Shown: positions 6,001-25,209 of the stretch, one piece after another
Position numbering within the stretch: position 1 is the first letter of the stretch
Layout: every line of letters starts with the position of its first letter
IMG/VR virus record: IMGVR_UViG_3300044626_000250
Span: 1 to 56,000 of that record
Strand: one strand, 5' to 3'
From: a virus
Lineage: Duplodnaviria; Caudoviricetes
DNA: 56,000 nucleotides
Notes under the pieces: generated by a model
What the model was told of the DNA's origin: nothing
What the model saw: only the letters and a program-made list of their open reading frames with translations
The model's database searches: none
Program-made: the position numbers and the translations under genes

Positions 6001-8549
6001 GTAATAGAAACATGAATGATCAAAACACTCAAGAAGCTTTAGAGAATGCATATAATGAATCATCTCAAAGACTTGTTTCTCATCCTAAAAACTATGACAG
6101 ACTTATTCAACCTAACTCTGCAGAACAATTAAAAGTATTATCAAAGTTCATAGCTGAAAAAACTGTTGGTCAATCATTTGATTATACAGATGTTGGTAAT
6201 ATGTTAGATAGAACATTTATGTCTAGACTTAGACATGCATTTGTTTCAGGTAAATATGCTATTGGTATTGCTGCTGTGAACCAAACTAATCATTCATTAA
6301 ATCAACGTCAAGCTATATTTATTGATAGAGACAGACTTAAATATGTATCTGAGGAAGATAAGTTTTGGTTAGGAGATGCAACAGTTAAGTTTCCTGAATA
6401 TAATAAATTAGGAATTGGTAATTATATTTCTCCTATTTTATCCATGGTTAAGAATGTTGCTGGTCAAGATATATCAGATATCCTTGGACAGTTCATAGAT
6501 GGGTTTGTGGATATTTCTAAAGGTCCTTGGATTATGGAACTTGGTCTTACACCTAATGTAGCATCAACTTGGATGACATTAGTTAAGATGGGAGTACCAG
6601 TTGATACAGTGGCTTATTTTATGAACCAACCTATCATCAAAGATTATTTAAATACTATCGAGAATTCTGGATATTCATATCTATTTATAGATAGTATCAT
6701 GGATGATGTTTTGGAAAAATATACTCCTAAAGGACAAAAGATATCTCAAAAAGATTTTGAAGCTTTAAGAAACAATTTTGAAATTCCTAGTAAAGATAAT
6801 TTGAAAAATCTTGTTGGTGCTTCATCTAAAAATTTAGATGCATTTCAATTAAGACAACAACAATTAATGTTGTGGGAATTTGTTAAATATGCAAAAATGG
6901 CTGAACATATGTTCTTAGTAACACAAGGTTCTAACTTTGATACAGCTAACTTCAATGATCCTTATTTAGTATTTAAGAAAATGATGATGCTTAAAAAAGC
7001 ACAGTCAACTATTATTGGATCTGTAGATAAAGATGGTAAACCAACTTCAGCTGTAAATGCTTTATTAGAGAATTCTTTCTTAGGTGATCTTGGGTCAACT
7101 ATTTTAAATATGAGAAATGCTCTTTCTAAAATATTAATGTCTGATCAACCAGAGATTAGAAATGTTATTGAGAAAGTCCTAACGCCATACATTGATGAAT
7201 CTGATAGAGACTTTGTAAAGATTGCTCAAAAAGCAGTGAATGATCTTTTTGATTATGCTGTTTTCACTGATCAAGGATATGCAGACTTATTGAAATCTGA
7301 ATTAATTAAAGATGGTGGTACAGCTAAACAGATATATAATTTTGTTAAAGATGTTAAAGAAGATGAAGATCATCCTTTACATAACAACCATGTCATTAAT
7401 ATATTAGAATACAAGCCATCTACTAAAGAGGGTAACTATCCTAACAATTTAAAAATCAAAGGACTTGATAATAAAGTGTTTGATCAAAACACTATCATTG
7501 GTGCATTCAGAGAAATAAAAAGATATATCGAAACTGAGAAAGCTATTGGTAATACAAAATACGAATCTATATATAAAGGATTAGTAAATGTTGCTGTATT
7601 ACAGTCAGGGTTGTCTAGTTCTCCTATATCATTTACATCACTACTTCCTTATGAAGATTTTGCTGATGTATATAATCCAACACTTTCCAAGTTGGCAAGT
7701 ATTAAAAACTTAGATGATTTCTATAAGCTTGGTGTGTTCCAAAGAAACAATTGGAATAATGATACGTTTGTTCCTTCAACAAGAGCAAGATGGATTAAAG
7801 TGGATGATCCATACGATTTTGGAAATAGAGTTTCTATATACAATCCATCTATGTACTTCCTTCCTGAAGCTGTTAAAGATGCTGTTTCTAATGGAGAAAT
7901 CCCTGAAATCTTAACACAGTCTGCAAATAATTCAGATTCAAAATTTGATTATATTACATTTAATTGGGAACTTCAACAAGAGATTTTAACAAAAGAAGAA
8001 TTAGAAAAAATTAAACCTTCTGAAAGTGTATTAGATGCTGTATTTGCTAAGAAAAATGAAATGCGTAGAAAAGGAGATTACTCATATATGCAAAAAGGAT
8101 TGTTTCAAAAAGTGTATGACAGTTATGGCGTACCATTAACAACAGAAGATGCAAAAGGTAATACATATTATATATACAAAGCTATCAATGCATGGGGTGA
8201 TTCATATAGAGCTAATGAGTTTTATAATGTAGACAAACCATCTGTGTTTGATAATGGAATGGTTACTGGTGTAGCTGCAAGTAATGGTTTAATAATTGAC
8301 ATATTCAAAGGAACAAGACCAATTGTAGGAGCTGTTACAGCCAACACTGCACCATCTGCAAAAAGAAATGTTACTATAAAAGGTATCTTTAATGGATTAA
8401 ATGAGTTTACGTTAGAACAAAAATCACAAATTTTATCTAACTTTGCTATCAAGCATGGTCTTACTTCAGAACAAGCATTAAAAGATATTAATGCAGCACT
8501 TAAAACCAATCGAGCTGAAGCAATTGAGCAATTAAAAAAATGTTACTAA
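3..8549 (+). CDS. Virion-packaged DNA-dependent RNA polymerase (crAss-like), with zincin metallopeptidase domain; 5' end probably outside the window
   Basis: Over 2846 aa. Catalytic motif GSDFDIDKL (DFDID at 5274-5288) preceded by FRTPTQ. Zincin HEVFH at 1128-1142 with downstream EEALAEEF. The frame is open from position 3, so the TTG start at 9 is probably not the real start. Confidence 0.9.
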   Translation, partial: ENLVVLADIKWENFEFLSKEDIDKLNSLKPLAEELDSINTLKISSKDSRTVAVEKRFAQLTNELTNELVDIIGKYVEQQLGKTISSSKPRLVTLQTPTSPTKPSNLDNAEGRKVLEDNINAKRQEELDSLFGTYTGDEYAAKEKEINDKYDSLAEKLKDVKVAKPGQFVLDGETLNIQIGNTGMMIVFTAESGVTVENTNDKIKIKPEFGDAVKVVEFVKEKGNLSQEDAIANIKKSLANSVAEYESTSKQFEQYAEDEFEPYVEPAFEEPINDAIDQASKLAGKPISASVKAAIAAKRTGRSKKARREIILQDLKNFKKEDWSKIERWIKAVLPNIPVYRVKNVIQATNGKQSWGMFHNGAVYIYENAQVGTTYHEVFHAIWRMFTDAKEQQAIFDEFTSRPGQFFDRTSGKLVDYSRATPDQMEEALAEEFKDYVHEGKKPYKPKDSRPFILKMFSDLVNFIKKFFLGGKESTSLVEELFKNINQGSYKASIPFSNELSYANVGIQDIENISGDDSSAFSLIDMGDVQRNEILQEMTYQTLLNFIDTDEDLFDIPNISKSKIYANLYGHIQGLIKEGIDVAKELLEDPEYQTPELQQSIISNIANTTLLMQQFEDGWESIVDRHQEYLRGYSITFDENDEIALTDDEKSKEDPYGDSTKIDHFKKANAAIKLLLSTIPILDVNSEEGDVLTSSIGGAILMPTSQAYISVMNNVHNSNNIEEMLEKLRQMALYDPTYAVLYDRLTKSSYKLSGLDLSKVKSVHGVKLIDAFWKTFKKQNPAVKNVFILNNGEIVVGDANLSTAAGQLKSEYISAIVVKAKEGKGFFTYNKDKKVYEGNSAKIKSLRLDGVVQMVSFLKELGVDFSQSDALKLKDAELKIFKEAVSGIRNSILNAEDIANFSSKTLNMDKRLFQIGLLKASVDNPMFDSTYFNVAGERTQSYVGTNAASNLFTFLSGLEKFTKDSLANTNYSYLGTDSFAENSSILNRKYTKEGNVIEGSEDLLTVGYVGGTINETNGKTKPSSKLNYRERLMQEINLNLKGWYLNLIPGDASLEWMIKMGNPISSISLTRGFGEVHDLFKGYFLSELKLAREGRPIANVKGRSTNDMRFFKSILGEVLHNNIISSTESVEKVYEDNADKINKALDAFIEQKKESFKKTLIDVNILKQNGYGYSLENIDLPQVMIESELNRHLNMLTVNYFVSQIEMHKLLYSDPYQYADELKRIKNFNSSGQAIMNSSPKMNKLYNNVWNKGFKKGSIGYTNFTQEYFKTATHEDVIGIVDLPNYEEYKETDGGGIMIFNAYRNYRIRASDWNTAEEAQYRYDIAWEKRDKKVELSKEEEALLLAGNPQVKSAYTPLKPIVRGNKANGKNYNDVVLDKFALYPLSYRLMKQINPTSNAVSLYAKMQKEKIDYIVYNSSRKVGADQAHPTYNAKGEFNNAPYAKRTIVNVPFSIMDVQTEVPSKDISLVTRGSQVTKLITMDFMDAGVPVDFVLLDAEGNENTNFSERYRTWFTMPEEQKLENSELYREIKTNQDLLSALMKQGYNNLLRSLGISSKNGEFRITNFSEAATTLRNEILKREVNDNISDALKGFLNGKAILEATPAYQQVRNILYSIADREIISPKMNGGMKVQVASTLLESVRAQETEINGKKGFTSDILKFYEKDGKRVCEVMVGRWFKSDLSDDELLDLWYKKDKKGNRTDELTEEGEKVMSGLAFRTPTQKQNSIDSFVIKQFLPVEFGDSVIVPSAIVAKSGSDFDIDKLSMYFKNLKVGKDGLPRYVEYLNDSNSTVEERFLKYVSKNTKDYKDIVKEFKNSEEFIAKGKKINESFGKVDEQRAALKDIKQEVDSVYSMGYESFKQLPLAIKQIFWKQEEDLTAQDVDGIQKNIYYSAIANNLITNLKKNKTIQLEQTVKLKDGKTKVETVTIPKEEALPYLQEMVANYKEMNILYGLSEEQQTKLEDILSNALSIKDLLNNKYKLEVAKVIAEATDLDSLETFSNRNMNDQNTQEALENAYNESSQRLVSHPKNYDRLIQPNSAEQLKVLSKFIAEKTVGQSFDYTDVGNMLDRTFMSRLRHAFVSGKYAIGIAAVNQTNHSLNQRQAIFIDRDRLKYVSEEDKFWLGDATVKFPEYNKLGIGNYISPILSMVKNVAGQDISDILGQFIDGFVDISKGPWIMELGLTPNVASTWMTLVKMGVPVDTVAYFMNQPIIKDYLNTIENSGYSYLFIDSIMDDVLEKYTPKGQKISQKDFEALRNNFEIPSKDNLKNLVGASSKNLDAFQLRQQQLMLWEFVKYAKMAEHMFLVTQGSNFDTANFNDPYLVFKKMMMLKKAQSTIIGSVDKDGKPTSAVNALLENSFLGDLGSTILNMRNALSKILMSDQPEIRNVIEKVLTPYIDESDRDFVKIAQKAVNDLFDYAVFTDQGYADLLKSELIKDGGTAKQIYNFVKDVKEDEDHPLHNNHVINILEYKPSTKEGNYPNNLKIKGLDNKVFDQNTIIGAFREIKRYIETEKAIGNTKYESIYKGLVNVAVLQSGLSSSPISFTSLLPYEDFADVYNPTLSKLASIKNLDDFYKLGVFQRNNWNNDTFVPSTRARWIKVDDPYDFGNRVSIYNPSMYFLPEAVKDAVSNGEIPEILTQSANNSDSKFDYITFNWELQQEILTKEELEKIKPSESVLDAVFAKKNEMRRKGDYSYMQKGLFQKVYDSYGVPLTTEDAKGNTYYIYKAINAWGDSYRANEFYNVDKPSVFDNGMVTGVAASNGLIIDIFKGTRPIVGAVTANTAPSAKRNVTIKGIFNGLNEFTLEQKSQILSNFAIKHGLTSEQALKDINAALKTNRAEAIEQLKKCY

Positions 8550-8550
8550 T

Positions 8551-11500
8551 ATGAGTTGTGTTAATCCTAATATCCCAGAGTTTCAAGAATTAGTTAGAAA
8601 GACAGGAAACTATCTTCTAGCTGAAATAGAATATACTAAAGGTTCTCCTGTTATACAATCTAATGGTAAGATGTTGAATCTTCCTGAAGAAGCTAAACAG
8701 AAAATTTATGAGAACTATGTAAATTTAATGGGTAGAAAAAGAGAAGGTAAGGAAGAAGGTTATGATAGTTTTAATAGAATGTTTGATAATCTTCAAGTAT
8801 TTAAAACAAAAGACACTTATATATTTGGACAATGGGATGCAAAAAATAATGTGTTTCAAGGAAGACTTATGTCTTCTCCTAACATTAGACAGTTATACGA
8901 AGCGTTAGATGAGTTAGTTGGCATGGTTGATTTCATGGCATCAGTTCCCCCAGATATGGGTAGGATGCTTGAAAGAAAAGGTATGTATAAATTAAATGTA
9001 GATAAGCTATATGATTTCAAGGGAGAGAAAATGGTTAAGAATTTATATTTCTCAAACAAAGAATCAGTTAAGAAGATTTTTAAAAAAGAAGAAAGTGAAA
9101 TAACCAAATCAGATGTTATAAAATATGATAAATTTTTTAACTATCAAGAAATTCTTAGAAAGTTAAGCGATGCATTTAAAAAAGGAAACTTTGATAACAT
9201 CTATCCTATTCTTAAAGAGTTAGGAATATATGATTATAACGCATATAAGATTCTTAATAAATTTAAACAGTTAGATAAAAACTTTTCAGAAGGAGAATTG
9301 AAAAAGTTTCGTGCAATGGATCTTTACACGAAAATGGTATCAGAAGAAACTGTTACAGGTGATATAAATTATCAACTCACTTCACAAGAAAAACAAAGAT
9401 ATAAGATATATAAAGAGTATATGTCAATTATATCAGATGTTAAAGATCAAATTATTAAAAATAGTGCTTCTAATTTTATTAATATAGACAAAAGAGATCT
9501 TTTTAATAATCCAAAAATTTACAATCAATTAGATAATGAGTTAAATAAAACTCTAGCAACCTATCTATCTAAGTTTGGTATCAAAACAGAAGTGTTAAAA
9601 GATATCCAAGATAGATTTGGTATTGATTCATATGCACATTTAGATATATTAAATAAAATTATATACACTTCTGAAACTAATCAAGGAGAATATCCACAAC
9701 AAGCAGGTAAGATAATTGCTTATATGATGCAACATAATCCTCTTGTAACAGAGATTATGGCCAATATGAAAAGATCATCAATGTTTGGCAGTCGTCTAAG
9801 CAAAGAAGACATGTTTGATGCTATTGGTGATATGATTTCAGAACAATTATATAAAAAGACAAACACTGAAGTGCCCACTTCTATTTTAGAAAAAATCAAC
9901 ATGTTGATTAGACAATTCTTTTCATTTATTACACAGGTGAGAATGAATAGAATTAATAGAAACGTTGGTATAATTGCTGATAATATATTGTTACAAAATC
10001 AATCATTAATAACATTCTCTCCTTTTAAACCTGGAGCAGCTAATAAACCAGTTGTAAGAGTTAGTTTCCAAGAGGCATTAGATGGAGATGCATTCGCTAC
10101 ATCAATTGTAGATAGAATGGCTGATAAATTTATTCTTGGTGGAAGTATTTCTTTTTCTGAACAAGGTCCTGTTTGGAGACCTGATGAAAATCAAGTGCAT
10201 GATCTTGATTGGGCTTCTTCATATCCAAGACAAGATACTAAAAATATATTTGAAAGTATTTATCCAGATGGTCAAAGAATTTATATTAGAGAGATATATG
10301 ATAAAAGCACTCAAGAATGGACAGACACTTGGCTATTAGCTGAAGATGGTCATTCAATTAAAAACTTAGTGCTATCAGATGATGGTAAGAATAAAATTCT
10401 TGCTTATGACATTGTTGATAATGAAACTGGTAAAGTGGTTAGTCAATATATTCCAAAATCAGATTCTCATACAGGAGATGTAGTTGCTAAACCTATCGAT
10501 ATTTTTTCTAGTGATAATATTAATAAAGAACAATTTCCTACACAAGATTTTATTACTTCTTCAGGAACAACAGTTAAACTTGGAAACTGGAGATCTTCGT
10601 TTGAAGCTAAACTTAGATATGGTAGATTAAAAGATCTTTGGGATTATAATAGATTCATTCCTGAAGAAAACATATATCAAGGAGAACCTTCTGAAGGTAA
10701 TTTTCAGTTGGAAGGAATGCCTATGTCAGCAGCTTCTGAAGAAACACTTACAAAGGTGAGAGCTCTTATTGAAAAAATGGGAGTTAGTATGAAGTCTCTT
10801 GTTGAATATGCTAAAACTTCTAAGCTAAATTTAGATGGTGTAAATGCTGTTGCTGATATGATTCATGGAATCATTGCTGTAGCTGAAGGAAAAGAAGCTG
10901 TATCTCTTACAGAAGAGATGGTGCACATTGCTACAGCTATATTAGAATTAAAGAATCCTAAGATGATTACAGAAATGATTGCAAAGATTGATCGTTTCAA
11001 AATATATAACATTACATTAAATGCATATAAAACTAATCGTGACTATCAACTTCCTAATGGTAAACCAGACATTCGTAAGATAAAGAAAGAAGCTGTTGAT
11101 AAATTAATTGCAGAATTAATTGTTAATCAAGGAAGAGATGTTGCTCAATATCCAGAACTTCTTGAACAAGAGAACATAAACTTTGTTCAACGTATATGGA
11201 ATAAAGTGTTAGATTGGTTTAGAGGAATGTACAAGGCTAATAATGTTGATATATTCAAACAAACTTCAGATATTATAATCAATGATGGATTCGAAGGAGA
11301 TTATAGAGATATTCAAAATAAACAAATTTATTTTCAATATAGTGATGCTCAAAAAAATGCACAAGCATTATTATTAAAAACTCAAGACGATTTAAAGAAA
11401 GTTGAAGTTAAAGAAAAAATAGATCCTTTATTTATGGATACTGAAGAAGCTAGTAACTTTTATGAAATACAAAATGCTAATGGTGTTTGGGAAAGAGTTG

Positions 11501-14500
11501 AAAAAAGGGTTACTGATCGTGTTAAATCTTGGTATCGTCAAAGATTTGGAAACAAAACTTTCAGCAAGGAAGAGCAAGCATTCAATGAGTTTAAAAGAAA
11601 GTTTGGTGTAAAAGCACATGGTTGGTTTGAAGATATTCATCAGAGATATTTTGAATCTGATGGTACAAGAAAGATTTCAATTGGTCAACGTAATGTAGCT
11701 CTTGAGAAAACAGAAGAGGACATGTACGTTCAATTGGAAGAATATTTTACTGATCTTGTTAAGAAGTTTTCTGAAAATGGAAAAAATCCTCTTGTATTTT
11801 CTGAGGTAAAAGTATATGATCCAAAAGAAAAAGAAGCTGGAACGCTTGACTTAGTTATTATTGATGAAACAGGTAAAGCTAACATTTTTGACTGGAAGTT
11901 TATGAGCGTTAGTCAAAATTCAGATGACGTTGCTTGGTACAAACAAGGTGCATATAATATACAGCTTGGTAGATATAAAGAAATTCTTCGTAACAATTAT
12001 GGTATAAAAGAATTTGGAATGAATAGAGCAATTCCTATCATAATGGAAATAAAAAGTCCAATGACAAAATCAGCTACTGCTGAACCTTATGTTGCTGGTA
12101 TAGCAATTGGTTCTGTAGATACATCAAAAATCAAAGAACTAAAACTTATTCCTATATCAGAAGAAACAGAAAGTACAGGTTTTGATACATTAGATAAACT
12201 TATAAAAGATTTAAATGCTGTATATAGACAAATTGGTAAACAAGATGTAAATAATGAGGAGGAAAAAGAATTTAAATCAAAAAGATTAAATACAATTAAA
12301 GCTGCTATTAGAGCTGCTCAAGGATCATTAAACATTAGCCCATTGATCGAAGTGATTCGAGAAATGAAACTTAGTGGACAAATGATCATTGATGATTATA
12401 ATACAACCTATCTAAATCGTCCTGCTACAGAAAATGATCTTACTAATAAAGAGCTTTCTAAATTTTCTGATGAAATGAGAGAATACTTAGCAATGGCAGA
12501 AATTTTTGGTAGAGTGGATGATCGTATAAGAGATCTTATTTATAACTCTGAAATGGAAACTGCTGCTACTACATCAGAACAAAAAGCTGCTGTTAAAATT
12601 AGAAAAGAACTTTTAGATAGTATTGTAGAGGAAGCTAGTGAAATTAGAGACAGTAGAGAAACGATTAAGGAAATCTCTGGTAAATTTGCTGATAAATTTA
12701 TTGGACAAAGAAATCTTGTAGCTGGACTTCTTAATCCTGAAGCAGTGCTAAAAGGGTTAGGATCTTTTTTTAATGGTATTTCTGATCTTCCATTAGCATC
12801 ACTTAAGATTTTATATAAGCTTGTAAATAACTCTAAAGCTAATGCATCTAGGATTGCTAAAGAGGAAGTTGATGAATTGATGGAAATTAGAAAACGTCTT
12901 GTTGATAGAGGAGGAGATGTAAGATCTTTAATTAAACAAATTTATCAAAAAGATGATAACAATAAATGGGTTAATAAACTTATTTATAAATATAGTAAAG
13001 AGTTTTATGACGCTGTTGATCAAAATGCTCAATCTGAATTTAGAAGTAAGTCTTGGTTAGAAAATAACATTGATGTAGATGCTTACATGGAAGAAGCCAT
13101 TCAAAAAATGAATGAAAACATTAGTTATTATGAACGAAGATATTCTGAACATCCTGATGTATTAGAACAAATAGTTTATGAAGAAAAGTTAAAATGGGAC
13201 TTAACTGATGAAAACTTTAATGGTTGGAATAATTATATTATAAAAAGACATCCATTACAAAAATGGACATCTGAAGAATATATAGAGCTATCAAAAGATA
13301 AGGATTTATTAGAACTTTATGAATTCATCTCTCGTATAAATGATAAAGCAAAAGGTGTTGGATATATAGAAAATAAATTAGCTTCTACATTTCTACCTTT
13401 TGTTAGAAAATCTATGGCTGAAAGTCTTGCATGGGATGCCAGTCTTTCTGTTCTAACTTCTTTAGGAGATGGTTTAACTGTTAGAGCTGAAGATGTTGGA
13501 TTAGGTTCAATTAATGAACTTACAAAAGAATTAGAGCATTCTATTCCTAAATATTATACACATGATTTTAGTAGAGCTGAAGATGGTACAAATGACTACA
13601 GTGATGTAAGTGAGGACCTTTTCAAAAATATGATTATGTATATTAATCATATGGAAAAATATTCAATGCTATCTGAAATTGAAGGACAGTTACAACTTGT
13701 TAAAACTATTGAAGCTGGAAAAGATCATTTGAATACAAGTTTATTTGGAGATATTATCATTAAAGATGGTAAGCCAGATGAAGTGGCAGGAAACAAAGAA
13801 AACACACAAATGTTTGAGGATTTTATGCGTGGTGTATTCTATGAGCAAAAATATCCTTTGTCAGATTCAGACACTCCTTTAAATATAAATCTTAAAAATT
13901 TTATTAAAAAAGGAATTAATAGAGTGGCTGGTAGAGAGGTATATACTGTTGAAGAAAATCCTAGTGCTATTTCCTTAGTTAAATCTATTGATGCATTGAA
14001 TAGAGGGTTTCAATTAAAAACTCTTGGGTTTGAAGTGTTATCTGGAGCTGTAAATGCATTTGGTGCTAACATTCAAATTGCTACACAAGCTGGTAACTAT
14101 TTTAAAGCTAGAGAAGTTTTAGTTAATGAAGGTAAATTGATTGGGAATAAGTTTAAAAATGATGATGAAAGAAATATGTTTGTTCAATTAGTTGATGCAT
14201 TCATGCCTTTGAAAGATGATCCTAGTTATGAGAAACTAAAAAAAGCTGGACTTACAAAACTTACACAAGGAAGCTTTTCTGATTTCTTAATGATGTTTAT
14301 GAGAAATCCTGAGCAACATATTGAAAAATCAGTATTCCTCACTCTATTACAAAACACAATGGTTATTGATGGTAAGCTTGTTAATATTAGAGAGTATGTA
14401 AAAAATAAATATAAAGATAGATATACATCAGCAGAAGTTTACAAATCTACATCTGATATAATGGATAAGGAAATAGAGGAACTTAAAAAAACAAAATCTA

Positions 14501-15462
14501 TTGATGTTATTAAAAAACTAGAAGATGGTAAATTAGTTATTCCTGGATTTGATCTTAATGATTTTAATGAATTACAAAGATTAACAAACCTAACTAGAAC
14601 TATTTCTAGAAATGCTACAGGGGGAATGGCAGATTCTGATATGAATAGAGCTTCTATGAACATTTGGTTAAAGTCAATGCTCGTATTTAAGGGATGGATT
14701 CCTAAACTTTTAAAGACACGTTTTGCTCAATTCGCTGAAACATCTGATGATTTCTCAACTTCAATTAATGAGGATGGATTAACTCTTGGACAAAAATATG
14801 ATATTGGTCGTATTAGATTATTTGGTCATGTTTTAGGAGATGGTATCATTGCAGGAGTTAGAAATATAAATAATATCATTGCTTTAAATGATGCAGGGTT
14901 GGAACGATTAGATAAAATGTATGAAGATTTTTCTAAAAGTTATGAGAAACGTACAGGTAAAGTTTTACAGATGGATAAAGCTGATTTTATTGATTTAATG
15001 AGAAACAATTTACGTAATCAAATTAAAGAGTTAGCAATACTAATGAGTTTATTTGGTGCATATTTAGCATTAGGACTTATGGCTCCAGACGATGATGATG
15101 ATAAGGCAGCTAAGAACTTTTATCGTTTTTCACAAAGAACTATAGATAAATTTGTTGGAGAGCTTTCCTTCTTCTACAATCCTGTTGAGTTTCAAAAACT
15201 ACTTAGTGGAAGTGCATTCCCTGCATTGGGACTTTTCTCAGACATTGAAAGATTTACAAGTCATTTCTTTATGGAAACTACAGGTTTAGATTTGTCAGAC
15301 ACTGATCTTACAGTAGAAGAAGTAGAAAAGAAAGCACAGCCAGTTAAATATCTATCTAAAATGTTCCCAATCACAAAATCAATGATAACATATATGGCAC
15401 TTTTTGATGCTGATTTTGCTAAGGAATACGATGTTACAATACAAAGAAGTAATAATAGATAG
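8551..15462 (+). CDS. Giant multidomain virion/ejection-type protein: two degenerate zincin-like domains, putative nucleotidyltransferase domain, PD-(D/E)xK nuclease-like domain
   Basis: 2303 aa, directly after the RNAP as in crAss-like genomes. Motifs: FILGGS...HDLDW, SLTEEMVHIAT, and EVKVYD..AGTLDLVIID..NIFDWKF. Hydrophobic helix near the C-terminus. Confidence 0.7.
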   Translation: MSCVNPNIPEFQELVRKTGNYLLAEIEYTKGSPVIQSNGKMLNLPEEAKQKIYENYVNLMGRKREGKEEGYDSFNRMFDNLQVFKTKDTYIFGQWDAKNNVFQGRLMSSPNIRQLYEALDELVGMVDFMASVPPDMGRMLERKGMYKLNVDKLYDFKGEKMVKNLYFSNKESVKKIFKKEESEITKSDVIKYDKFFNYQEILRKLSDAFKKGNFDNIYPILKELGIYDYNAYKILNKFKQLDKNFSEGELKKFRAMDLYTKMVSEETVTGDINYQLTSQEKQRYKIYKEYMSIISDVKDQIIKNSASNFINIDKRDLFNNPKIYNQLDNELNKTLATYLSKFGIKTEVLKDIQDRFGIDSYAHLDILNKIIYTSETNQGEYPQQAGKIIAYMMQHNPLVTEIMANMKRSSMFGSRLSKEDMFDAIGDMISEQLYKKTNTEVPTSILEKINMLIRQFFSFITQVRMNRINRNVGIIADNILLQNQSLITFSPFKPGAANKPVVRVSFQEALDGDAFATSIVDRMADKFILGGSISFSEQGPVWRPDENQVHDLDWASSYPRQDTKNIFESIYPDGQRIYIREIYDKSTQEWTDTWLLAEDGHSIKNLVLSDDGKNKILAYDIVDNETGKVVSQYIPKSDSHTGDVVAKPIDIFSSDNINKEQFPTQDFITSSGTTVKLGNWRSSFEAKLRYGRLKDLWDYNRFIPEENIYQGEPSEGNFQLEGMPMSAASEETLTKVRALIEKMGVSMKSLVEYAKTSKLNLDGVNAVADMIHGIIAVAEGKEAVSLTEEMVHIATAILELKNPKMITEMIAKIDRFKIYNITLNAYKTNRDYQLPNGKPDIRKIKKEAVDKLIAELIVNQGRDVAQYPELLEQENINFVQRIWNKVLDWFRGMYKANNVDIFKQTSDIIINDGFEGDYRDIQNKQIYFQYSDAQKNAQALLLKTQDDLKKVEVKEKIDPLFMDTEEASNFYEIQNANGVWERVEKRVTDRVKSWYRQRFGNKTFSKEEQAFNEFKRKFGVKAHGWFEDIHQRYFESDGTRKISIGQRNVALEKTEEDMYVQLEEYFTDLVKKFSENGKNPLVFSEVKVYDPKEKEAGTLDLVIIDETGKANIFDWKFMSVSQNSDDVAWYKQGAYNIQLGRYKEILRNNYGIKEFGMNRAIPIIMEIKSPMTKSATAEPYVAGIAIGSVDTSKIKELKLIPISEETESTGFDTLDKLIKDLNAVYRQIGKQDVNNEEEKEFKSKRLNTIKAAIRAAQGSLNISPLIEVIREMKLSGQMIIDDYNTTYLNRPATENDLTNKELSKFSDEMREYLAMAEIFGRVDDRIRDLIYNSEMETAATTSEQKAAVKIRKELLDSIVEEASEIRDSRETIKEISGKFADKFIGQRNLVAGLLNPEAVLKGLGSFFNGISDLPLASLKILYKLVNNSKANASRIAKEEVDELMEIRKRLVDRGGDVRSLIKQIYQKDDNNKWVNKLIYKYSKEFYDAVDQNAQSEFRSKSWLENNIDVDAYMEEAIQKMNENISYYERRYSEHPDVLEQIVYEEKLKWDLTDENFNGWNNYIIKRHPLQKWTSEEYIELSKDKDLLELYEFISRINDKAKGVGYIENKLASTFLPFVRKSMAESLAWDASLSVLTSLGDGLTVRAEDVGLGSINELTKELEHSIPKYYTHDFSRAEDGTNDYSDVSEDLFKNMIMYINHMEKYSMLSEIEGQLQLVKTIEAGKDHLNTSLFGDIIIKDGKPDEVAGNKENTQMFEDFMRGVFYEQKYPLSDSDTPLNINLKNFIKKGINRVAGREVYTVEENPSAISLVKSIDALNRGFQLKTLGFEVLSGAVNAFGANIQIATQAGNYFKAREVLVNEGKLIGNKFKNDDERNMFVQLVDAFMPLKDDPSYEKLKKAGLTKLTQGSFSDFLMMFMRNPEQHIEKSVFLTLLQNTMVIDGKLVNIREYVKNKYKDRYTSAEVYKSTSDIMDKEIEELKKTKSIDVIKKLEDGKLVIPGFDLNDFNELQRLTNLTRTISRNATGGMADSDMNRASMNIWLKSMLVFKGWIPKLLKTRFAQFAETSDDFSTSINEDGLTLGQKYDIGRIRLFGHVLGDGIIAGVRNINNIIALNDAGLERLDKMYEDFSKSYEKRTGKVLQMDKADFIDLMRNNLRNQIKELAILMSLFGAYLALGLMAPDDDDDKAAKNFYRFSQRTIDKFVGELSFFYNPVEFQKLLSGSAFPALGLFSDIERFTSHFFMETTGLDLSDTDLTVEEVEKKAQPVKYLSKMFPITKSMITYMALFDADFAKEYDVTIQRSNNR

Positions 15463-16609: not shown

Positions 16610-17026
16610 ATGGTAACAAGTGCACAATGTTTAAAAAAATATGGTGATCCTACTAAAGAGTCTAATATGACTCTATGGGATGTACCAACTGAATTGGAAG
16701 TGGGAGTTATACCAAAAAGACTTTATTGTAATAAAGATATGGTCGCACCTCTTACACAAGCATTTAAAAATCTTATAGCAACAGGTTTTGTAAAAGAACT
16801 AAAAACTTGGGATGGATGCTTTAATATAAGAAAGAAGAGAGGATTAACTAGTATGTCATTACACTCATGGGGAATTGCCATAGATGTTAATGCTGCATGG
16901 AATGGACTTGGTAAAACACCAGTGTTATCTGCAGGATTTGTAAAATGTTTTACAGATGCAGGTTTTGATTGGGGAGGTACATGGACACGTAAAGATGGAA
17001 TGCATTTCCAATTAAATAAAATATAA
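16610..17026 (+). CDS. Endolysin, M15 family peptidase
   Basis: R...SLHSWGIAIDVN and WGGTW..KDGMHFQL zinc-ligand motifs. Confidence 0.9.
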   Translation: MVTSAQCLKKYGDPTKESNMTLWDVPTELEVGVIPKRLYCNKDMVAPLTQAFKNLIATGFVKELKTWDGCFNIRKKRGLTSMSLHSWGIAIDVNAAWNGLGKTPVLSAGFVKCFTDAGFDWGGTWTRKDGMHFQLNKI

Positions 17027-20934: not shown

Positions 20935-21651
20935 ATGGCAATACCATCAAGAGGAATAGGCTGGAGTACAGAAGATAACCTGTTATGGCAGATATCTAAA
21001 CAACTAGAGCAACTTACTAATGTTACAGCTAAGGGTTGTACAACCACTACAAGCACAAGTAGTAGCACAACCACCACAACAACCACCTTACCTGTTTATC
21101 AAGTGTATACAGCTTTATTAACACAAACAGGAGCTAGTACGCCAAATGCAGTTGGAGATCTTCCATTATTACCTGGTACTACTTATGAAATTATTGACAA
21201 TGATGGTGGTACAGCTGATTTTACAAATGTAGGTGCTCCTAACAATAATGTAGGAACATTTTTTGTTGCTACAGGAACAACACCAACTAGTTGGGGAGAT
21301 AATTTATTAGGTCAATTACAATATGATTCAGGGGCTCCAACAGTAATAGTGTTAGAGAACACTATTGGTAATATTTATTTTACATATAGAGATCCAGGTC
21401 AATATAAATGTTGGTCTGATAATTTATTTACACAAGATAAAACAACTGTTTTTATAAGTGATACAGTTAATACTAAATCAATTTCAGATCCTTTACAAAT
21501 GAGAGTGTTATGTTCTATTGATACAGGTCAACAACCAGGTTATTTAAATATATTCACAGGAACAGTGGCTCCATCTTATGAAGATGGTATAATAACTAAT
21601 GATGGTAACTTACAGTTTTATGTAACATTTGAAATCAGAGTTTATAACTAA
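20935..21651 (+). CDS. Modular protein: MAIPSR anchor + Cys + Thr/Ser tract + YxVY...EIRVY domain
   Basis: MAIPSRGIG..NLLWQISKQLE; CTTTTSTSSSTTTTTTT; C-terminal domain shared with 24339-24782. Confidence 0.8.
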   Translation: MAIPSRGIGWSTEDNLLWQISKQLEQLTNVTAKGCTTTTSTSSSTTTTTTTLPVYQVYTALLTQTGASTPNAVGDLPLLPGTTYEIIDNDGGTADFTNVGAPNNNVGTFFVATGTTPTSWGDNLLGQLQYDSGAPTVIVLENTIGNIYFTYRDPGQYKCWSDNLFTQDKTTVFISDTVNTKSISDPLQMRVLCSIDTGQQPGYLNIFTGTVAPSYEDGIITNDGNLQFYVTFEIRVYN

Positions 21652-21666
21652 TAATATAAAAGAAAA

Positions 21667-21834
21667 ATGGCTATACCTAGTAGACAAATTGGACAAAGCA
21701 CACAAGCTAATTTACTTTGGCAGATATCTAAGCAGTTAGAACGTCTAATCTGTGTAGCAGCTTGTGGATGTTCTACAACCACGACAACAACAACTATAGA
21801 ACCTACAACCACTACGACCACAACAGTATCATAA
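21667..21834 (+). CDS. Short paralog: MAIPSR anchor + poly-Thr tail (55 aa)
   Basis: Not in the ORF track; read manually as MAIPSRQIGQSTQANLLWQISKQLERLICVAACGCSTTTTTTTIEPTTTTTTTVS. Confidence 0.85.
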   Translation: MAIPSRQIGQSTQANLLWQISKQLERLICVAACGCSTTTTTTTIEPTTTTTTTVS

Positions 21835-21859: not shown

Positions 21860-22876
21860 ATGAAAGAATTGAAATTTATCCAGGCTTGTCCTAGTGACAT
21901 TTATTACACATGGCAAGTAAATTTATGGATGGAGAGTCTTAAAGAAATAGGACACTCTGACAAAGCAATCAATCTAATCTTTACACCTAAAGGAAGAGAG
22001 AATAGAGATAAGTGGAAACAGATAGAAGATCTATATCCAGAAGCAGAGTTTCATTATTATGAAGATGAGGATAATTTGAATAGATTAATTAGTATATACA
22101 TTCCTGTATTAAGACCATATGTTTTATGGAGACATTTTAAATTACATCCAGAACTAAGTGATTGTGCTATATTCTATTGTGATTCAGACATTCTTTTCAT
22201 GAAAGATTTCAATGTGGATCAGTTTTTGGAAGATGATGTAAACTACTTATCAGATACAAACAGTTATATCAATGCTAAGTATTTTGATAGTAAGATCAAT
22301 CAAGTGCTACCAGAGAAACTGGAAGAGTATAAAACTAGAGATGTTCTTGCTGAAATAGCAAGTGTTGTTGGAATAAGCAGAGAAATAGCTGAAGCTAATA
22401 ATGATCATTCAGGAGGAGCTCAATATCTATTAAAGAATGTAGATAGTGACTTCTGGAGTAAGGTGATGAATGATTGTATTCTTATAAGAACCTATTTACA
22501 ACAAGTGAATAGAGAATTCTTTAAAGATGAGAACAGTGGATTCCAAAGTTGGTGTGCAGATATGTGGGCTGTTCTTTGGAACATCTGGTTAAGAAATCAA
22601 GAAACTAAAGTGGTGAAAGAACTAGCATTTGCTTGGGCAACAGATCCACTTATTAAATTAGATACGCACACCATCTTTCATAATGCAGGCATAGTGTCTG
22701 AAACAGGAAATGGTTATCCAGCTTTTTATAAAGGTAAATATCACATGGGAACAGATCCAACAAAAGATCCTAACCTAGATATGATTCTTGAGAATGAACA
22801 ATCAAAAAAATATTGCACGTGGTTCTATGCAAGTAAACTAAATGAACTAAAACAAAAATATAAACTTAATTATTAA
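21860..22876 (+). CDS. GT-A fold glycosyltransferase resembling peptidyl O-glycosyltransferases (GT95 HPAT / GT96 SERGT-like)
   Basis: YYTWQ, YIPVLRPY, DxD motif in FYCDSDILF, GGAQY, WCADMW and FHNAG, in the order expected for these families (comparison from memory). Confidence 0.7.
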   Translation: MKELKFIQACPSDIYYTWQVNLWMESLKEIGHSDKAINLIFTPKGRENRDKWKQIEDLYPEAEFHYYEDEDNLNRLISIYIPVLRPYVLWRHFKLHPELSDCAIFYCDSDILFMKDFNVDQFLEDDVNYLSDTNSYINAKYFDSKINQVLPEKLEEYKTRDVLAEIASVVGISREIAEANNDHSGGAQYLLKNVDSDFWSKVMNDCILIRTYLQQVNREFFKDENSGFQSWCADMWAVLWNIWLRNQETKVVKELAFAWATDPLIKLDTHTIFHNAGIVSETGNGYPAFYKGKYHMGTDPTKDPNLDMILENEQSKKYCTWFYASKLNELKQKYKLNY

Positions 22877-22881
22877 ATAAA

Positions 22882-23670
22882 ATGACACCAAACAAACGTG
22901 ACTTAAAAGCGTATTCTCGCTTTGATGGAACTGGTAGAATCGTACCAGGAAGCACTGTGCTTAGACGTAACAAACCTAAAGTGGGTAATTGGAAAGAAGT
23001 GCAGGCATATGAATGTTGTTCACCTTCTCTAAACACTTCATATAGATGCTGTATAGCAATACAAGCTGTTGCAGATAGTGATAGTGGATTGTATGGTTTT
23101 ACATTACAAACTAGAAATAATGGAGGACCTAATTTAACAGGAAGTATTCAATGGACATCTACAGCAAGTGAGAGTTTTTCTCTTGTTGCTGATGGAAGTA
23201 ATTATGATTTTGAATATGATTTGGAAGGTGTAATTCCTCACACTGTGTATCTATGTATAGATAATGCTTCTCAGATTCAAGATTTTGAAATTGGATTTGG
23301 TCCTGGTAATTCTGTAGCAATAAGCAATCTTTATCAACTAGAAGGCATTAATGAATGGGATGGTGATGATATGGAATTCAATTCTTTAGATTTTACAGGC
23401 ATCACTACAATAACACGTCTATATAACGATAATACAGGATTAGTACATATAAACATTACAGGTTGTGTAAACTTGGAGGAGGTTGAGATAGAGGGTAATG
23501 CTTTAACAGAAGCTTCTGTAGATCATGTTCTTATTACACTTGATGACAATGGTCTTACCAATGGTTATGTTGATATTAGTGGAGGAACTAATTCTACACC
23601 ATCTGCTCTAGGTTTAGCAGCTGAAGCAAGTCTTATATTAAAAGGTTGGGACGTATTTATTAACCCTTAA
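22882..23670 (+). CDS. Modular protein: RFDG...ECC anchor + acidic domain with LRR-like repeats
   Basis: LKAYSRFDGTGRIVPGS..KPKVGNWKEVQAYECC; C-terminal SLDFTGITTITRLY / HINITGCVNLEEVEIEGNALT. Confidence 0.75.
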   Translation: MTPNKRDLKAYSRFDGTGRIVPGSTVLRRNKPKVGNWKEVQAYECCSPSLNTSYRCCIAIQAVADSDSGLYGFTLQTRNNGGPNLTGSIQWTSTASESFSLVADGSNYDFEYDLEGVIPHTVYLCIDNASQIQDFEIGFGPGNSVAISNLYQLEGINEWDGDDMEFNSLDFTGITTITRLYNDNTGLVHINITGCVNLEEVEIEGNALTEASVDHVLITLDDNGLTNGYVDISGGTNSTPSALGLAAEASLILKGWDVFINP

Positions 23671-23824: not shown

Positions 23825-24091
23825 ATGGCAACTAATAACAGACCTCTGAAAGCATATGTTAGATTCGATGGATCTGGCAGAATTGTTGCTGGAAGTTTGA
23901 TTCTTAGAAAGAACAAACCTAAGGTGGGTAAGTGGAAAGAAATACAAGCATATGAGTGCTGTTTTCTTACTACAACCACCACAACAACTGTTGCTCCTAC
24001 TACTACTAGTACAACAACTGTAGCACCTACAACAACAACTAGTACTACAGCTGGACCTACAACAACTACTACAACAACTCCAGCACCTTAA
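23825..24091 (+). CDS. RFDG...ECC anchor + mucin-like Thr/Pro repeat tail
   Basis: Paralogous N-terminus followed by four 10-aa Thr-rich repeats. Confidence 0.85.
   Translation: MATNNRPLKAYVRFDGSGRIVAGSLILRKNKPKVGKWKEIQAYECCFLTTTTTTTVAPTTTSTTTVAPTTTTSTTAGPTTTTTTTPAP
23969..24088 (+). repeat. 4 x 30-nt degenerate coding tandem repeat
   Basis: Encodes TTTTTTTVAP TTTSTTTVAP TTTTSTTAGP TTTTTTTPAP; Thr codons vary synonymously (ACT/ACA/ACC). Confidence 0.9.
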
Positions 24092-24096
24092 TTATC

Positions 24097-24318
24097 ATGG
24101 CAAGAAGTAATAACAATAACAAGCTTAAAGCTTTTGTACGTTTTGATGGAACAGGACGTATTATACCAAGTAGTTTAATTGTACAAGCATTTAAACCTGC
24201 TGTAGGTAACTATGTAGAGATAGATGCTAAAGAGTGTTGTAATTATGTTCCAGGTATTCTTCTTTTAGAAGATGGAGGATCATTGCTACAGGAAGATAAT
24301 GGAGAAATTTTACTTTAA
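24097..24318 (+). CDS. RFDG...ECC anchor + LLxED repeat tail
   Basis: LKAFVRFDGTGRIIPSS...AKECC followed by LLLEDGGSLLQEDNGEILL. Confidence 0.8.
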   Translation: MARSNNNNKLKAFVRFDGTGRIIPSSLIVQAFKPAVGNYVEIDAKECCNYVPGILLLEDGGSLLQEDNGEILL

Positions 24319-24338: not shown

Positions 24339-24782
24339 ATGGCAAATAAAAAAATAAGTCAGCTTACAGCAGCTGCAGCCTTAACAGGAACAGAATTACT
24401 ACCAATTGTACAAGGTGGTGAAACAGTACAAACAACAGCACAAGACATTGCTGATCTTGGTGGAGGTGGATTACTATACAAAGTGTATTCAGCTAGAGTT
24501 GAAATGAGTGATGGTAGTGCTACTGTTTTTGAAAATACATTAGGAGTTACAATTACATGGACATCAACAAGTGGTCAAATAAGCACAGGAACAGTTGGTG
24601 GACTTATTGGTCAAAATAATGTTTATGTTCAAGTTAGTAGTCGTACAACTACTAGTTCTCCTAAGATTGTAAGTGGAGAATTTAATCCTACTCCATGGAA
24701 TGTAATGGTAAAACAAACAGATAATGCAGGAGTTGCAGATAGCACTCAGTCTATATTTATAGAAATTCGTGTATATCCATAA
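24339..24782 (+). CDS. Virion fibre/decoration-like protein
   Basis: MANKKISQL..LTGTELLPIVQ N-terminal module seen in phage fibre proteins; YKVYSA...FENTLG...IEIRVY domain shared with 20935-21651. Confidence 0.7.
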   Translation: MANKKISQLTAAAALTGTELLPIVQGGETVQTTAQDIADLGGGGLLYKVYSARVEMSDGSATVFENTLGVTITWTSTSGQISTGTVGGLIGQNNVYVQVSSRTTTSSPKIVSGEFNPTPWNVMVKQTDNAGVADSTQSIFIEIRVYP

Positions 24783-24795
24783 CATAAAAAACAAA

Positions 24796-25209
24796 ATGGC
24801 ACTAAAATCCCTATTTCCAGATGACATGATGAAATCATCATCTGAAGGCTTAACGTTAGAAAGCATAGCTGCCAAGCTTACTTACTTCCATGAGCAATTA
24901 CATCTGCTACATTGGCAAACAACATCATATGCTCAACACCAAGCTCTTGGTGGATTATATGATTATGTTCATGACTTCAAAGATGGATTGGTTGAAAAGA
25001 TTATGGGATATACAGGTAAAAGACCTAGTCCATATAAAATAGAACCATTAATAAATTGCACAGGAGAGCAGTGCGTTAGTAATCTTTTATCTTTTGCATC
25101 AGCTTTAAAGATGTATGGTGAGAAGAATGGTTATCATGATGTATGTAATCTAGCAGATTCATTATCAGGAGAAGCAGCTAAAACTAAATACCTATTAACA
25201 TTGTCATAA
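24796..25209 (+). CDS. Ferritin/Dps-like protein (DUF5856-like)
   Basis: QLHLLHWQTTSYAQHQALGGLYD...DGLVE and terminal KTKYLLTL. ATG 24796 preferred over 24769. Confidence 0.8.
   Translation: MALKSLFPDDMMKSSSEGLTLESIAAKLTYFHEQLHLLHWQTTSYAQHQALGGLYDYVHDFKDGLVEKIMGYTGKRPSPYKIEPLINCTGEQCVSNLLSFASALKMYGEKNGYHDVCNLADSLSGEAAKTKYLLTLS

Follow-up and report, generated by a model that had tools for sequence, protein, structure and literature searches.

A predicted GT-A glycosyltransferase of phages and its genomic association with poly-threonine proteins

Results

A predicted glycosyltransferase gene flanked by poly-Thr ORFs

We analyzed a 56,000-nucleotide (56 kb) stretch of viral DNA (Duplodnaviria; Caudoviricetes), referred to here as the window, which corresponds to positions 1 to 56,000 of the IMG/VR virus record IMGVR_UViG_3300044626_000250, and we focused on a gene for a predicted glycosyltransferase (GT) and on the threonine-rich proteins encoded beside it. 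The record has an estimated completeness of 49%, the window has a G+C content of ∼31%, and its coding strand changes near 30 kb. Fold prediction, sequence comparison, and genomic context led us to conclude that the product of this gene is probably a cytoplasmic protein O-glycosyltransferase, which would act on poly-Thr tags of virion proteins.

A poly-Thr run in the window was defined as at least five consecutive Thr/Ser residues with at least four Thr. Such runs occur in 3/374 six-frame open reading frames (ORFs) of at least 40 residues, and all three of these ORFs flank the enzyme gene within ∼1 kb (Table 1). Mixed ACA, ACC, ACG, and ACT codons specify the Thr residues, which argues that the runs are kept at the protein level. 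PHROG profiles gave no function for the poly-Thr proteins of the window, a tblastn search of phages with the 238-residue neighbor returned one marginal hit, and only about five near-full-length homologues were found for a candidate acceptor. A complex prediction combining the enzyme with residues 40–88 of the 88-residue protein was run without controls and scored 0.02 against a mark of 0.32; it was not used as evidence. Scanning for promoters and terminators revealed nothing above shuffled sequences that would separate the genes.

Table 1. Features of the window, with the enzyme gene and its neighbors first and the other genes below
Feature	Position	Strand	Length (residues)	Description
Predicted glycosyltransferase	21860..22876	+	338	ATG start; predicted GT-A fold; D108/D110, H274, K291; phrog_4417 member
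Candidate acceptor	20935..21651	+	238	∼35-residue conserved N-terminal module, 16-residue Thr/Ser run, ∼185-residue C-terminal domain
Candidate acceptor	21667..21834	+	55	Same ∼35-residue N-terminal module, two Thr7 runs; ends 25 nucleotides before enzyme start
Candidate acceptor	23825..24091	+	88	Second N-terminal module type (ends ECC), four Thr-rich runs separated by VAP/AGP
Protein directly downstream of enzyme	22882..23670	+	262	Second N-terminal module, no poly-Thr run; weak match to phrog_34853 (function unknown)
Downstream protein	24097..24318	+	73	Third copy of second N-terminal module, no poly-Thr run
Dps-like "starvation-inducible regulator" family protein	24769–25209	+		phrog_858, E = 3e-13
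Very large ORF	3–8549	+	2848	Open at window 5' end; upstream of structural/fiber-like cluster
Very large ORF	8551–15462	+	2303	Adjoins 3–8549; upstream of structural/fiber-like cluster
Small endolysin-like protein	16610–17026	+		phrog_17001, E = 5e-9
Protein with rIIA-like part	41619–43931	−	770	N-terminal ∼40% matches actinophage rIIA-like proteins, 33–36% identity

The ∼35-residue N-terminal module of the two upstream candidates (MAIPSR...) heads ORFs of 47–558 residues in related loci, often as several paralogues per locus, and these ORFs usually continue with a poly-Thr run and then a variable C-terminal part. The arrangement resembles a plug-in system for variable virion appendages. The second N-terminal module comprises ∼45 residues, and only the 88-residue protein among its three bearers goes on into poly-Thr runs. 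By eye, the 238-residue protein and the product of 24339–24782 have similar C termini (...EIRVY[NP]) and different N termini, which suggests domain shuffling.

A mainly viral family with a predicted GT-A fold

The preliminary description of this DNA had called the enzyme ORF, read its product as a glycosyltransferase, and quoted four strings from it, and on these points we agree. The ORF is a single one on the plus strand with an ATG start, and the strings YYTWQVNLWMESL (residues 15–27), YIPVLRPYVL (80–89), CDSDILF (107–113), and SWCADMW (230–236) are all present in the protein. Their conservation goes beyond chance, as they coincide with the most conserved blocks of a 93-sequence alignment (A1) of the query and 92 representatives at 31–51% identity. 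The A1 consensus blocks are YFxWQ, YIPxxRP, FYxDSDIxF, QSWCADMWAxLWN, and then HNAG; Y80, D108, D110, Y136, Q229, F257, H274, and K291 are invariant in all 93 sequences.

The protein matches phrog_4417, annotated as function unknown, over its full length (E = 2.2e-54; residues 4–320 on profile positions 1–286 of 293). Relatives are numerous: a protein database search gave 2660 matches at E ≤ 1e-3 out of 3407 candidates, the 120 relatives listed being 70–89% identical and unnamed or "hypothetical," and an exhaustive search gave 767 clusters (50% identity) at E ≤ 1e-3 and 253 at E ≤ 1e-30. By tblastn, 77 isolated-phage records contain a homologue at 22–34% identity, and these come from phages of Lactobacillus, Enterococcus, Staphylococcus, Lactococcus, Clostridium, Lacticaseibacillus, Levilactobacillus, Chryseobacterium, and Arcanobacterium, together with six "Bacteriophage sp." records. 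Annotation resources added little. Pfam had no match to the 338-residue protein at E ≤ 10, NCBIfam gave nothing of note, searches of PDB sequences with the protein and with its profile gave chance-level matches only, and the last database search, made with the profile of a second subfamily (alignment A3, see below), listed 120 relatives of which none carries any Pfam label. The family is mainly viral and uncharacterized.

An AlphaFold2 model built on A1 had a mean predicted local distance difference test score (pLDDT) of 97.3 and a predicted template modeling score (pTM) of 0.94. It begins with a β-strand at residues 4–11 and ends with a helix at 319–334, with no hydrophobic terminal segment; a strand opening near residue 4 indicates that the protein would have neither a signal peptide nor a membrane anchor. 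In the model, D108-S-D110 directly follows the strand at 103–107, a GT-A-like placement. Foldseek comparison with the PDB gave 249 matches at E ≤ 1e-3, and the 50 listed are GT-A enzymes, mainly of GT8 and GT24. The top match was glycogenin, a GT8 enzyme that glucosylates a protein hydroxyl (E = 4.2e-7; template modeling (TM) score 0.46 by query and 0.59 by target), followed by the UGGT catalytic domain (GT24), WbbM, XXYLT1, and a yeast mannosyltransferase. Among viral models, the closest were a family member from an uncultured phage (TM 0.81/0.86) and Orf49 of Lactobacillus phage LP65 (TM 0.72), and giant-virus GT8-like proteins came next at TM ≤ 0.5. We consider the protein almost certain to be a GT-A glycosyltransferase with a DxD motif, judging from the model, Foldseek, and profile alignment.

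The profile alignment concerned GT8. When A1 was aligned by hhalign with eight bacterial PF01501 proteins (alignment A4), the probability was 82% (E = 1e-5) over 190 columns covering the N-terminal two thirds only, with DxD placed on DxD and NSGG on NSG. The A4 consensus reads D.NY, Y.RL, D.D, NSG, DQD..N, and H..G.KPW, which is the same motif order as in the phage family, so that this order is a property of the wider GT-A group and not diagnostic of GT95/GT96. Predicted fold, top Foldseek matches, profile alignment, and motif order are the points of likeness with GT8. The differences are that the phage protein is ∼80 residues longer, has extra helices at 139–179 and 196–244 in the model, and carries a C-terminal H...K pair 17 residues apart where GT8 has its H..G.KPW block. 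The GT8 model PF01501 did not match the protein at E ≤ 10 and was absent from the first 25 of the 35 Pfam families that match the 93 A1 members. By these sequence and model comparisons, the phage family is a distant GT8-like GT-A relative and not a GT8 member.

Poly-Thr ORFs accompany the gene in uncultured viral loci

The association seen in the window recurs among its close relatives, which we represented by 80 IMG/VR loci at 65–94% identity. A poly-Thr ORF was present in 79/80 of these loci, in nearly all cases on the strand of the enzyme gene and no more than ∼1 kb away from it. With identical copies dropped and the two flanking ORFs of at least 80 residues counted as neighbors, a run was found in 61/137 flanking ORFs versus 35/885 other same-strand ORFs (Fisher p = 5e-35). 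A second subfamily of ∼300 residues, for which 80 loci were found with a 16-row alignment (A3), had a poly-Thr ORF in 59/80 loci, 57 of them within 1.5 kb. Here the run was strongly polarized: it lay on the upstream ORF in 47/71 loci and on the downstream ORF in 1/71, with 16/502 among other ORFs (p = 4e-37).

In locus L134 (3012–4979), and similarly in L149 and L163, a phrog_1407 major-tail-protein domain makes up the first ∼207 residues; several hundred residues of Thr/Ser tract come next, and then a C-terminal domain. Such a protein resembles a tail tube subunit whose mucin-like arm is very long.

Thr-rich tags on head and tail proteins of isolated phages

In isolated phages, an automated search classed 14/15 enzyme loci as Thr-rich: 8/9 by a strict rule, and the ninth (SAC12B) together with 5/6 further loci by a broader one. 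Their hosts are Enterococcus, Lactococcus, Lactobacillus, Lacticaseibacillus, Staphylococcus, Clostridium, Arcanobacterium, and Chryseobacterium. The fifteenth locus, that of LP65, has Thr-rich tails of the TETQ type on two upstream ORFs, one of which bears the annotation of a structural protein detected in mass spectrometry. In most isolates, the Thr-rich stretches belong to the major head protein, the major tail protein, or the protein encoded immediately upstream. In the 6 of the first 9 loci where the enzyme motif was recognized, the upstream neighbor carried a run in 3/6, compared with 6/61 other ORFs.

The siphophages place the tags at the extreme C terminus of their major head and major tail proteins, with the enzyme gene directly after one of them. 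Poly-Thr is otherwise rare in these genomes. It occurs in 2/310 ORFs of the whole phiFL1A genome and 2/494 of the whole R9.1 genome, in each case the head and tail proteins, and in 3/378 ORFs of the first 50 kb of Lactococcus phage 1706, where it marks a head protein fusion, a tail protein, and a holin. The 1706 holin (orf3, 964–1365, so annotated) has a Thr7 run near its C terminus and is the only poly-Thr ORF there that is not a head or tail protein. PHROG scans assigned the tagged major head proteins to phrog_10, 544, and 29 and the tagged major tail proteins to phrog_88, 238, and 1407.

Within a phage, the head and tail tags share their last residues: HHD in 1706, SHV in R9.1, and TSK in iLp84. 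We also observed Thr tags with shared ends in Lacticaseibacillus genomes (L242 and L251), which add SHA to a set of endings that differ between phages. The shared endings hint either at copying of tag DNA within the genome or at recognition of the C-terminal end. A separate observation concerns the Staphylococcus, Arcanobacterium, and Enterococcus phages and iLp84, where a short ORF rich in Thr runs comes right after the major tail or capsid gene, or overlaps its end, and might represent a frameshift extension of the encoded protein.

The phiFL1A tail protein has homologues in 76 phage records, and we examined seven. The Thr run was present in both phages with the enzyme (phiFL1A and R3.3) and in none of the five without it (p = 0.048), which were two Streptococcus prophages, phiJL-1, ATCC8014, and SPP1. 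Searching the whole records found the enzyme in 0/5 of the untagged phages and in 5/5 positive controls.

Bacterial and fused relatives

Stand-alone bacterial forms of the enzyme, mostly in Bacillota prophage-like loci and phage-like contigs, had a Thr-rich neighbor in 22/31 loci, compared with only 4/49 for fused bacterial forms. The family is therefore not restricted to a poly-Thr role and probably has a second, cellular one. Fused forms of 450–775 residues are common in Bacteroidota chromosomes (Chitinophaga, Sphingobacterium, Pedobacter, and Mucilaginibacter). Among 44 fused relatives scanned, the partner domains were GT2 (5), GT7C (3), GT6 (2), and one each of GT29, GT25, GT32-like, and GT61, along with methyltransferases and a radical-SAM/SPASM domain. 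A search for longer relatives with the A1 profile yielded 37 fused relatives and a similar picture of partner domains. The addition of further glycosyltransferase domains fits a role in glycan building.

Discussion

In the mechanism that we favor, a soluble, metal-dependent GT-A enzyme would bind a nucleotide sugar through the metal held by its DxD motif and, late in infection, would transfer the first sugar onto Thr hydroxyls of exposed, unstructured runs in the host cytoplasm, before or during assembly. By analogy with GT8, transfer would probably be retaining. In the lineage of the window, the runs would be linkers or tails of the small modular proteins encoded beside the gene; in Bacillota siphophages, they would tag the C termini of the major head and major tail proteins. 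The predicted outcome is a hydrophilic, mucin-like glycan coat on the capsid, tail tube, or fiber linkers, with shielding, stability, or adhesion as candidate benefits. Where it is the sole recognizable glycosyltransferase in a genome, the enzyme would be the initiating one, and fused GT2, GT6, GT7, GT29, and methyltransferase domains, or host enzymes, would extend or decorate the glycan. What argues most strongly for this mechanism is that the association reappears with head and tail proteins of unrelated families and in different hosts.

We also considered a much broader claim, namely that a poly-Thr tag and a dedicated soluble enzyme make up a widespread, undescribed system in phages of Bacillota, Bacteroidota, Actinomycetota, and aquatic hosts that places mucin-like O-glycans on capsids, tail tubes, and fiber linkers, and that the family may be a prokaryotic or viral sister of GT95/GT96, a deep phage or bacterial root of wall-protein peptide glycosylation. 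In this full form, the claim is speculative, and we think it improbable.

Several points weigh against the favored mechanism. The acceptor assignment is guilt by association, and the enzyme could extend a glycan begun by a host enzyme instead of initiating one. In the second subfamily, 21/80 loci had no poly-Thr ORF in the stretch examined; the loci within each set are interrelated, so the Fisher p values overstate their independence; and the tail-protein comparison is small (2 versus 5 phages, p = 0.048). The absence of GT2, GT1/4, and GT8 genes from five small enzyme-bearing phages (controls positive) speaks for the mechanism, but these three family searches leave other glycosyltransferase families possible in small phages. 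Nine of the 31 stand-alone bacterial loci are without a Thr-rich neighbor, as are most (45/49) of the fused forms on the chromosomes of Chitinophaga, Sphingobacterium, and Pedobacter. Finally, we took the converse approach and scanned IMG/VR for nine ACN codons, which returned at least 118 stretches; 80 were listed, and 58 of these had an ORF with at least seven consecutive Thr. The enzyme was present in only 5/58, each time directly downstream. For the other 53 stretches, 50 whole records were submitted and 39 were searchable, and the enzyme was found elsewhere in 2/39, including 0/5 records at least 90% complete. The rarity of the enzyme among poly-Thr records indicates that poly-Thr tracts are a wider feature, to which other enzymes or no glycosylation may apply.

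The preliminary description had made two further claims, and they fared differently. Its idea of a Thr-rich peptide as acceptor is strongly backed by the genomic context, with poly-Thr/VAP tracts encoded next to the gene. Its family assignment, to the plant hydroxyproline arabinosyltransferases (HPAT) and peptidyl-serine galactosyltransferases (SGT1) of GT95/GT96, was tied to a profile match and argued from motif order; by the first measure it does not stand, since no significant HPAT/SGT profile match was found. The GT8 consensus has the identical order. A true viral member of this clade would share common ancestry and peptide O-glycosylation with the plant enzymes, and we regard such a special kinship as possible and, on balance, doubtful. 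What speaks for it comes largely from PF23452, the Pfam HPAT model (307 positions, cut-off 23.9 bits). PF23452 is the sole recurring family in the Pfam scan of A1, with weak matches in 3/93 members at E ≤ 10 (best E = 0.012, below the cut-off), the others among the 25 of 35 families listed having hit one member each. In the ESM Atlas, PF23452 is the commonest label of the language-model neighbors, carried by 10–58% of the members in 11/30 nearest clusters and in 21/30 nearest named clusters, which is a lead only; six clusters carry DUF7164. Direct scans tell against it. The PF23452 cut-off was reached by 0/147 scanned members (93 from A1, 44 fused, and 10 bacterial), so that by the Pfam criterion, a sequence test, the protein is not a GT95/GT96 member. 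The model did not match the 338-residue protein at E ≤ 10, nor 44 fused forms at E ≤ 0.01 (0/44), nor 10 bacterial homologues at E ≤ 10 (0/10), and it was absent from the precomputed Pfam column of all 277 database relatives listed (120 + 120 + 37). Records that hold the family also gave no match above the cut-off (0/1 for the window, 0/4 phage, 0/50 viral, and 0/50 bacterial), these being weak negatives as the 14 control genomes were silent; the 50 bacterial genomes yielded nine noise hits, the best at E = 0.015 and most with stop codons. Equally weak is the negative from 0/401 genomes of one phylum. SGT1 is roughly 800 residues long, and a profile search aimed at that length found no plant protein among its 37 longer relatives. 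The phage enzyme has no membrane anchor in the model, and its motif order is common to GT8. Two properties of the plant families also speak for the kinship: both families, described as related to each other, act on peptide hydroxyls (available text of PMC8012813), and a GT-A-like fold is predicted for GT95, that of GT96 being possibly novel (available text of PMC8476585).

Two other readings dispense with the tag. The enzyme might be a GT8-like glycan extender, an enzyme that modifies the host surface (teichoic acid or polysaccharide, as for superinfection exclusion), or one that modifies DNA (as by base glycosylation), with the poly-Thr adjacency incidental. Phage glycosyltransferases are known to act on DNA and on host serotype (as stated in the available part of PMC12619734), the nearest solved folds include the polysaccharide enzymes WbbM and XXYLT1, and 45/49 fused chromosomal forms of Bacteroidota are without Thr-rich neighbors. 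This reading is nonetheless very unlikely in our judgment, given that the gene lies within the head-tail structural operon, right after a head or tail gene, in unrelated siphophages; that orthologous tail proteins are tagged only where the enzyme is present (2/2 versus 0/5); that upstream neighbors are enriched in runs (47/71 versus 16/502); and that the modeled enzyme has no membrane segment. The preliminary description had said that a closer structural match to GT8-type glycan extenders, together with inactivity on peptide acceptors, would refute its proposal. The closer GT8 match is there, but the extender part does not follow, the matched glycogenin being itself a protein-glucosylating enzyme. 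The remaining reading treats poly-Thr as nothing more than flexible linkers or tails, whose glycosylation, should there be any, would fall to other enzymes or those of the host, and gives the phage enzyme a different site on virion proteins. It can draw on the 51/58 poly-Thr stretches from viral contigs that show no sign of the enzyme and on the glycosylated capsid and tail proteins of Che8, which end in ...TGS and ...DGS with no poly-Thr. Set against this is the occurrence of the same short tag, a Thr run plus identical last residues, on unrelated head and tail proteins of one phage; nothing follows the shared tag, which points to a portable recognition tag instead of a linker. We give this reading, too, little credence, and we retain the cytoplasmic O-glycosylation of poly-Thr tags as the probable function.

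Virion glycosylation is known as a kind of system, and in the literature found, as far as its available text goes, phage-encoded virion glycosylation is demonstrated only in mycobacteriophages. We found no description of this enzyme family, of the poly-Thr tag, or of such a host range. Our literature search, supplementary files aside, turned up no work that deals with PF23452, DUF7164, or phrog_4417 or that connects poly-Thr tails to glycosyltransferases of phages. The finding is more interesting for its genomic context than for the proposed plant kinship. If the favored mechanism is correct, a different enzyme family and a simple tag would serve phages of Enterococcus, Staphylococcus, Lactococcus, Lactobacillus, and Clostridium and abundant uncultured aquatic phages, and the large phrog_4417 family (767 clusters at 50% identity) would gain a function. 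It would also account for the unusual poly-Thr tails that head and tail proteins carry and provide a sequence rule for predicting glycosylated virions, which bears on the stability of phages, their adherence to mucus, and their recognition by the immune system in therapy. Such a compact pair of tag and enzyme might be useful in glyco-engineering.

The proposed system can be compared with known ones other than GT8. With GT95/GT96, the likeness is the predicted transfer of a first sugar onto hydroxyls of a repetitive, proline-containing, hydroxyl-rich peptide. The predicted acceptor of the phage enzyme is Thr, whereas the plant enzymes place L-arabinofuranose on Hyp or galactose on Ser in peptides of the extensin type, and the phage family is viral or bacterial, not plant. 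The phage enzyme is predicted to be soluble, whereas the plant arabinosyltransferases are type II membrane proteins anchored in the Golgi (according to the available text of PMC8012813).

Animal mucin-type O-glycosylation is begun by the polypeptide GalNAc-transferases of GT27. The proposed likeness is that a GT-A enzyme would start a dense O-glycosylation of tandem tracts rich in Thr and Pro. Among the top 50 PDB hits listed, GT27 is matched neither in sequence nor in fold, and the phage enzyme is without a lectin domain and is predicted to be cytoplasmic, not Golgi-resident.

The closest parallel in kind is found in mycobacteriophages, whose virion glycosylation, involving gp108–gp110 of Che8 and gp38 of Corndog, was reportedly described by Freeman et al. 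in 2023. Phage-encoded glycosyltransferases modify these virions and shield the particles from antibodies (available text of PMC12363180), and the glycans are located at protein C termini (available text of PMC12619734). As far as these sources extend, the likeness with Che8 and Corndog is that phage glycosyltransferases act on the C termini of capsid and tail-tube proteins as an optional, lineage-specific system. The enzymes themselves show no detectable relation: the hhalign probability of A1 was 0.6% with Che8 gp108, 0.15% with gp109, and 0.07% with gp110, and no Mycobacterium phage is among the 77 tblastn records. The capsid and tail acceptors of Che8 have no poly-Thr tail, and its glycosyltransferase genes are at the far right end of the genome, whereas those of the phage family described here lie in the structural operon.

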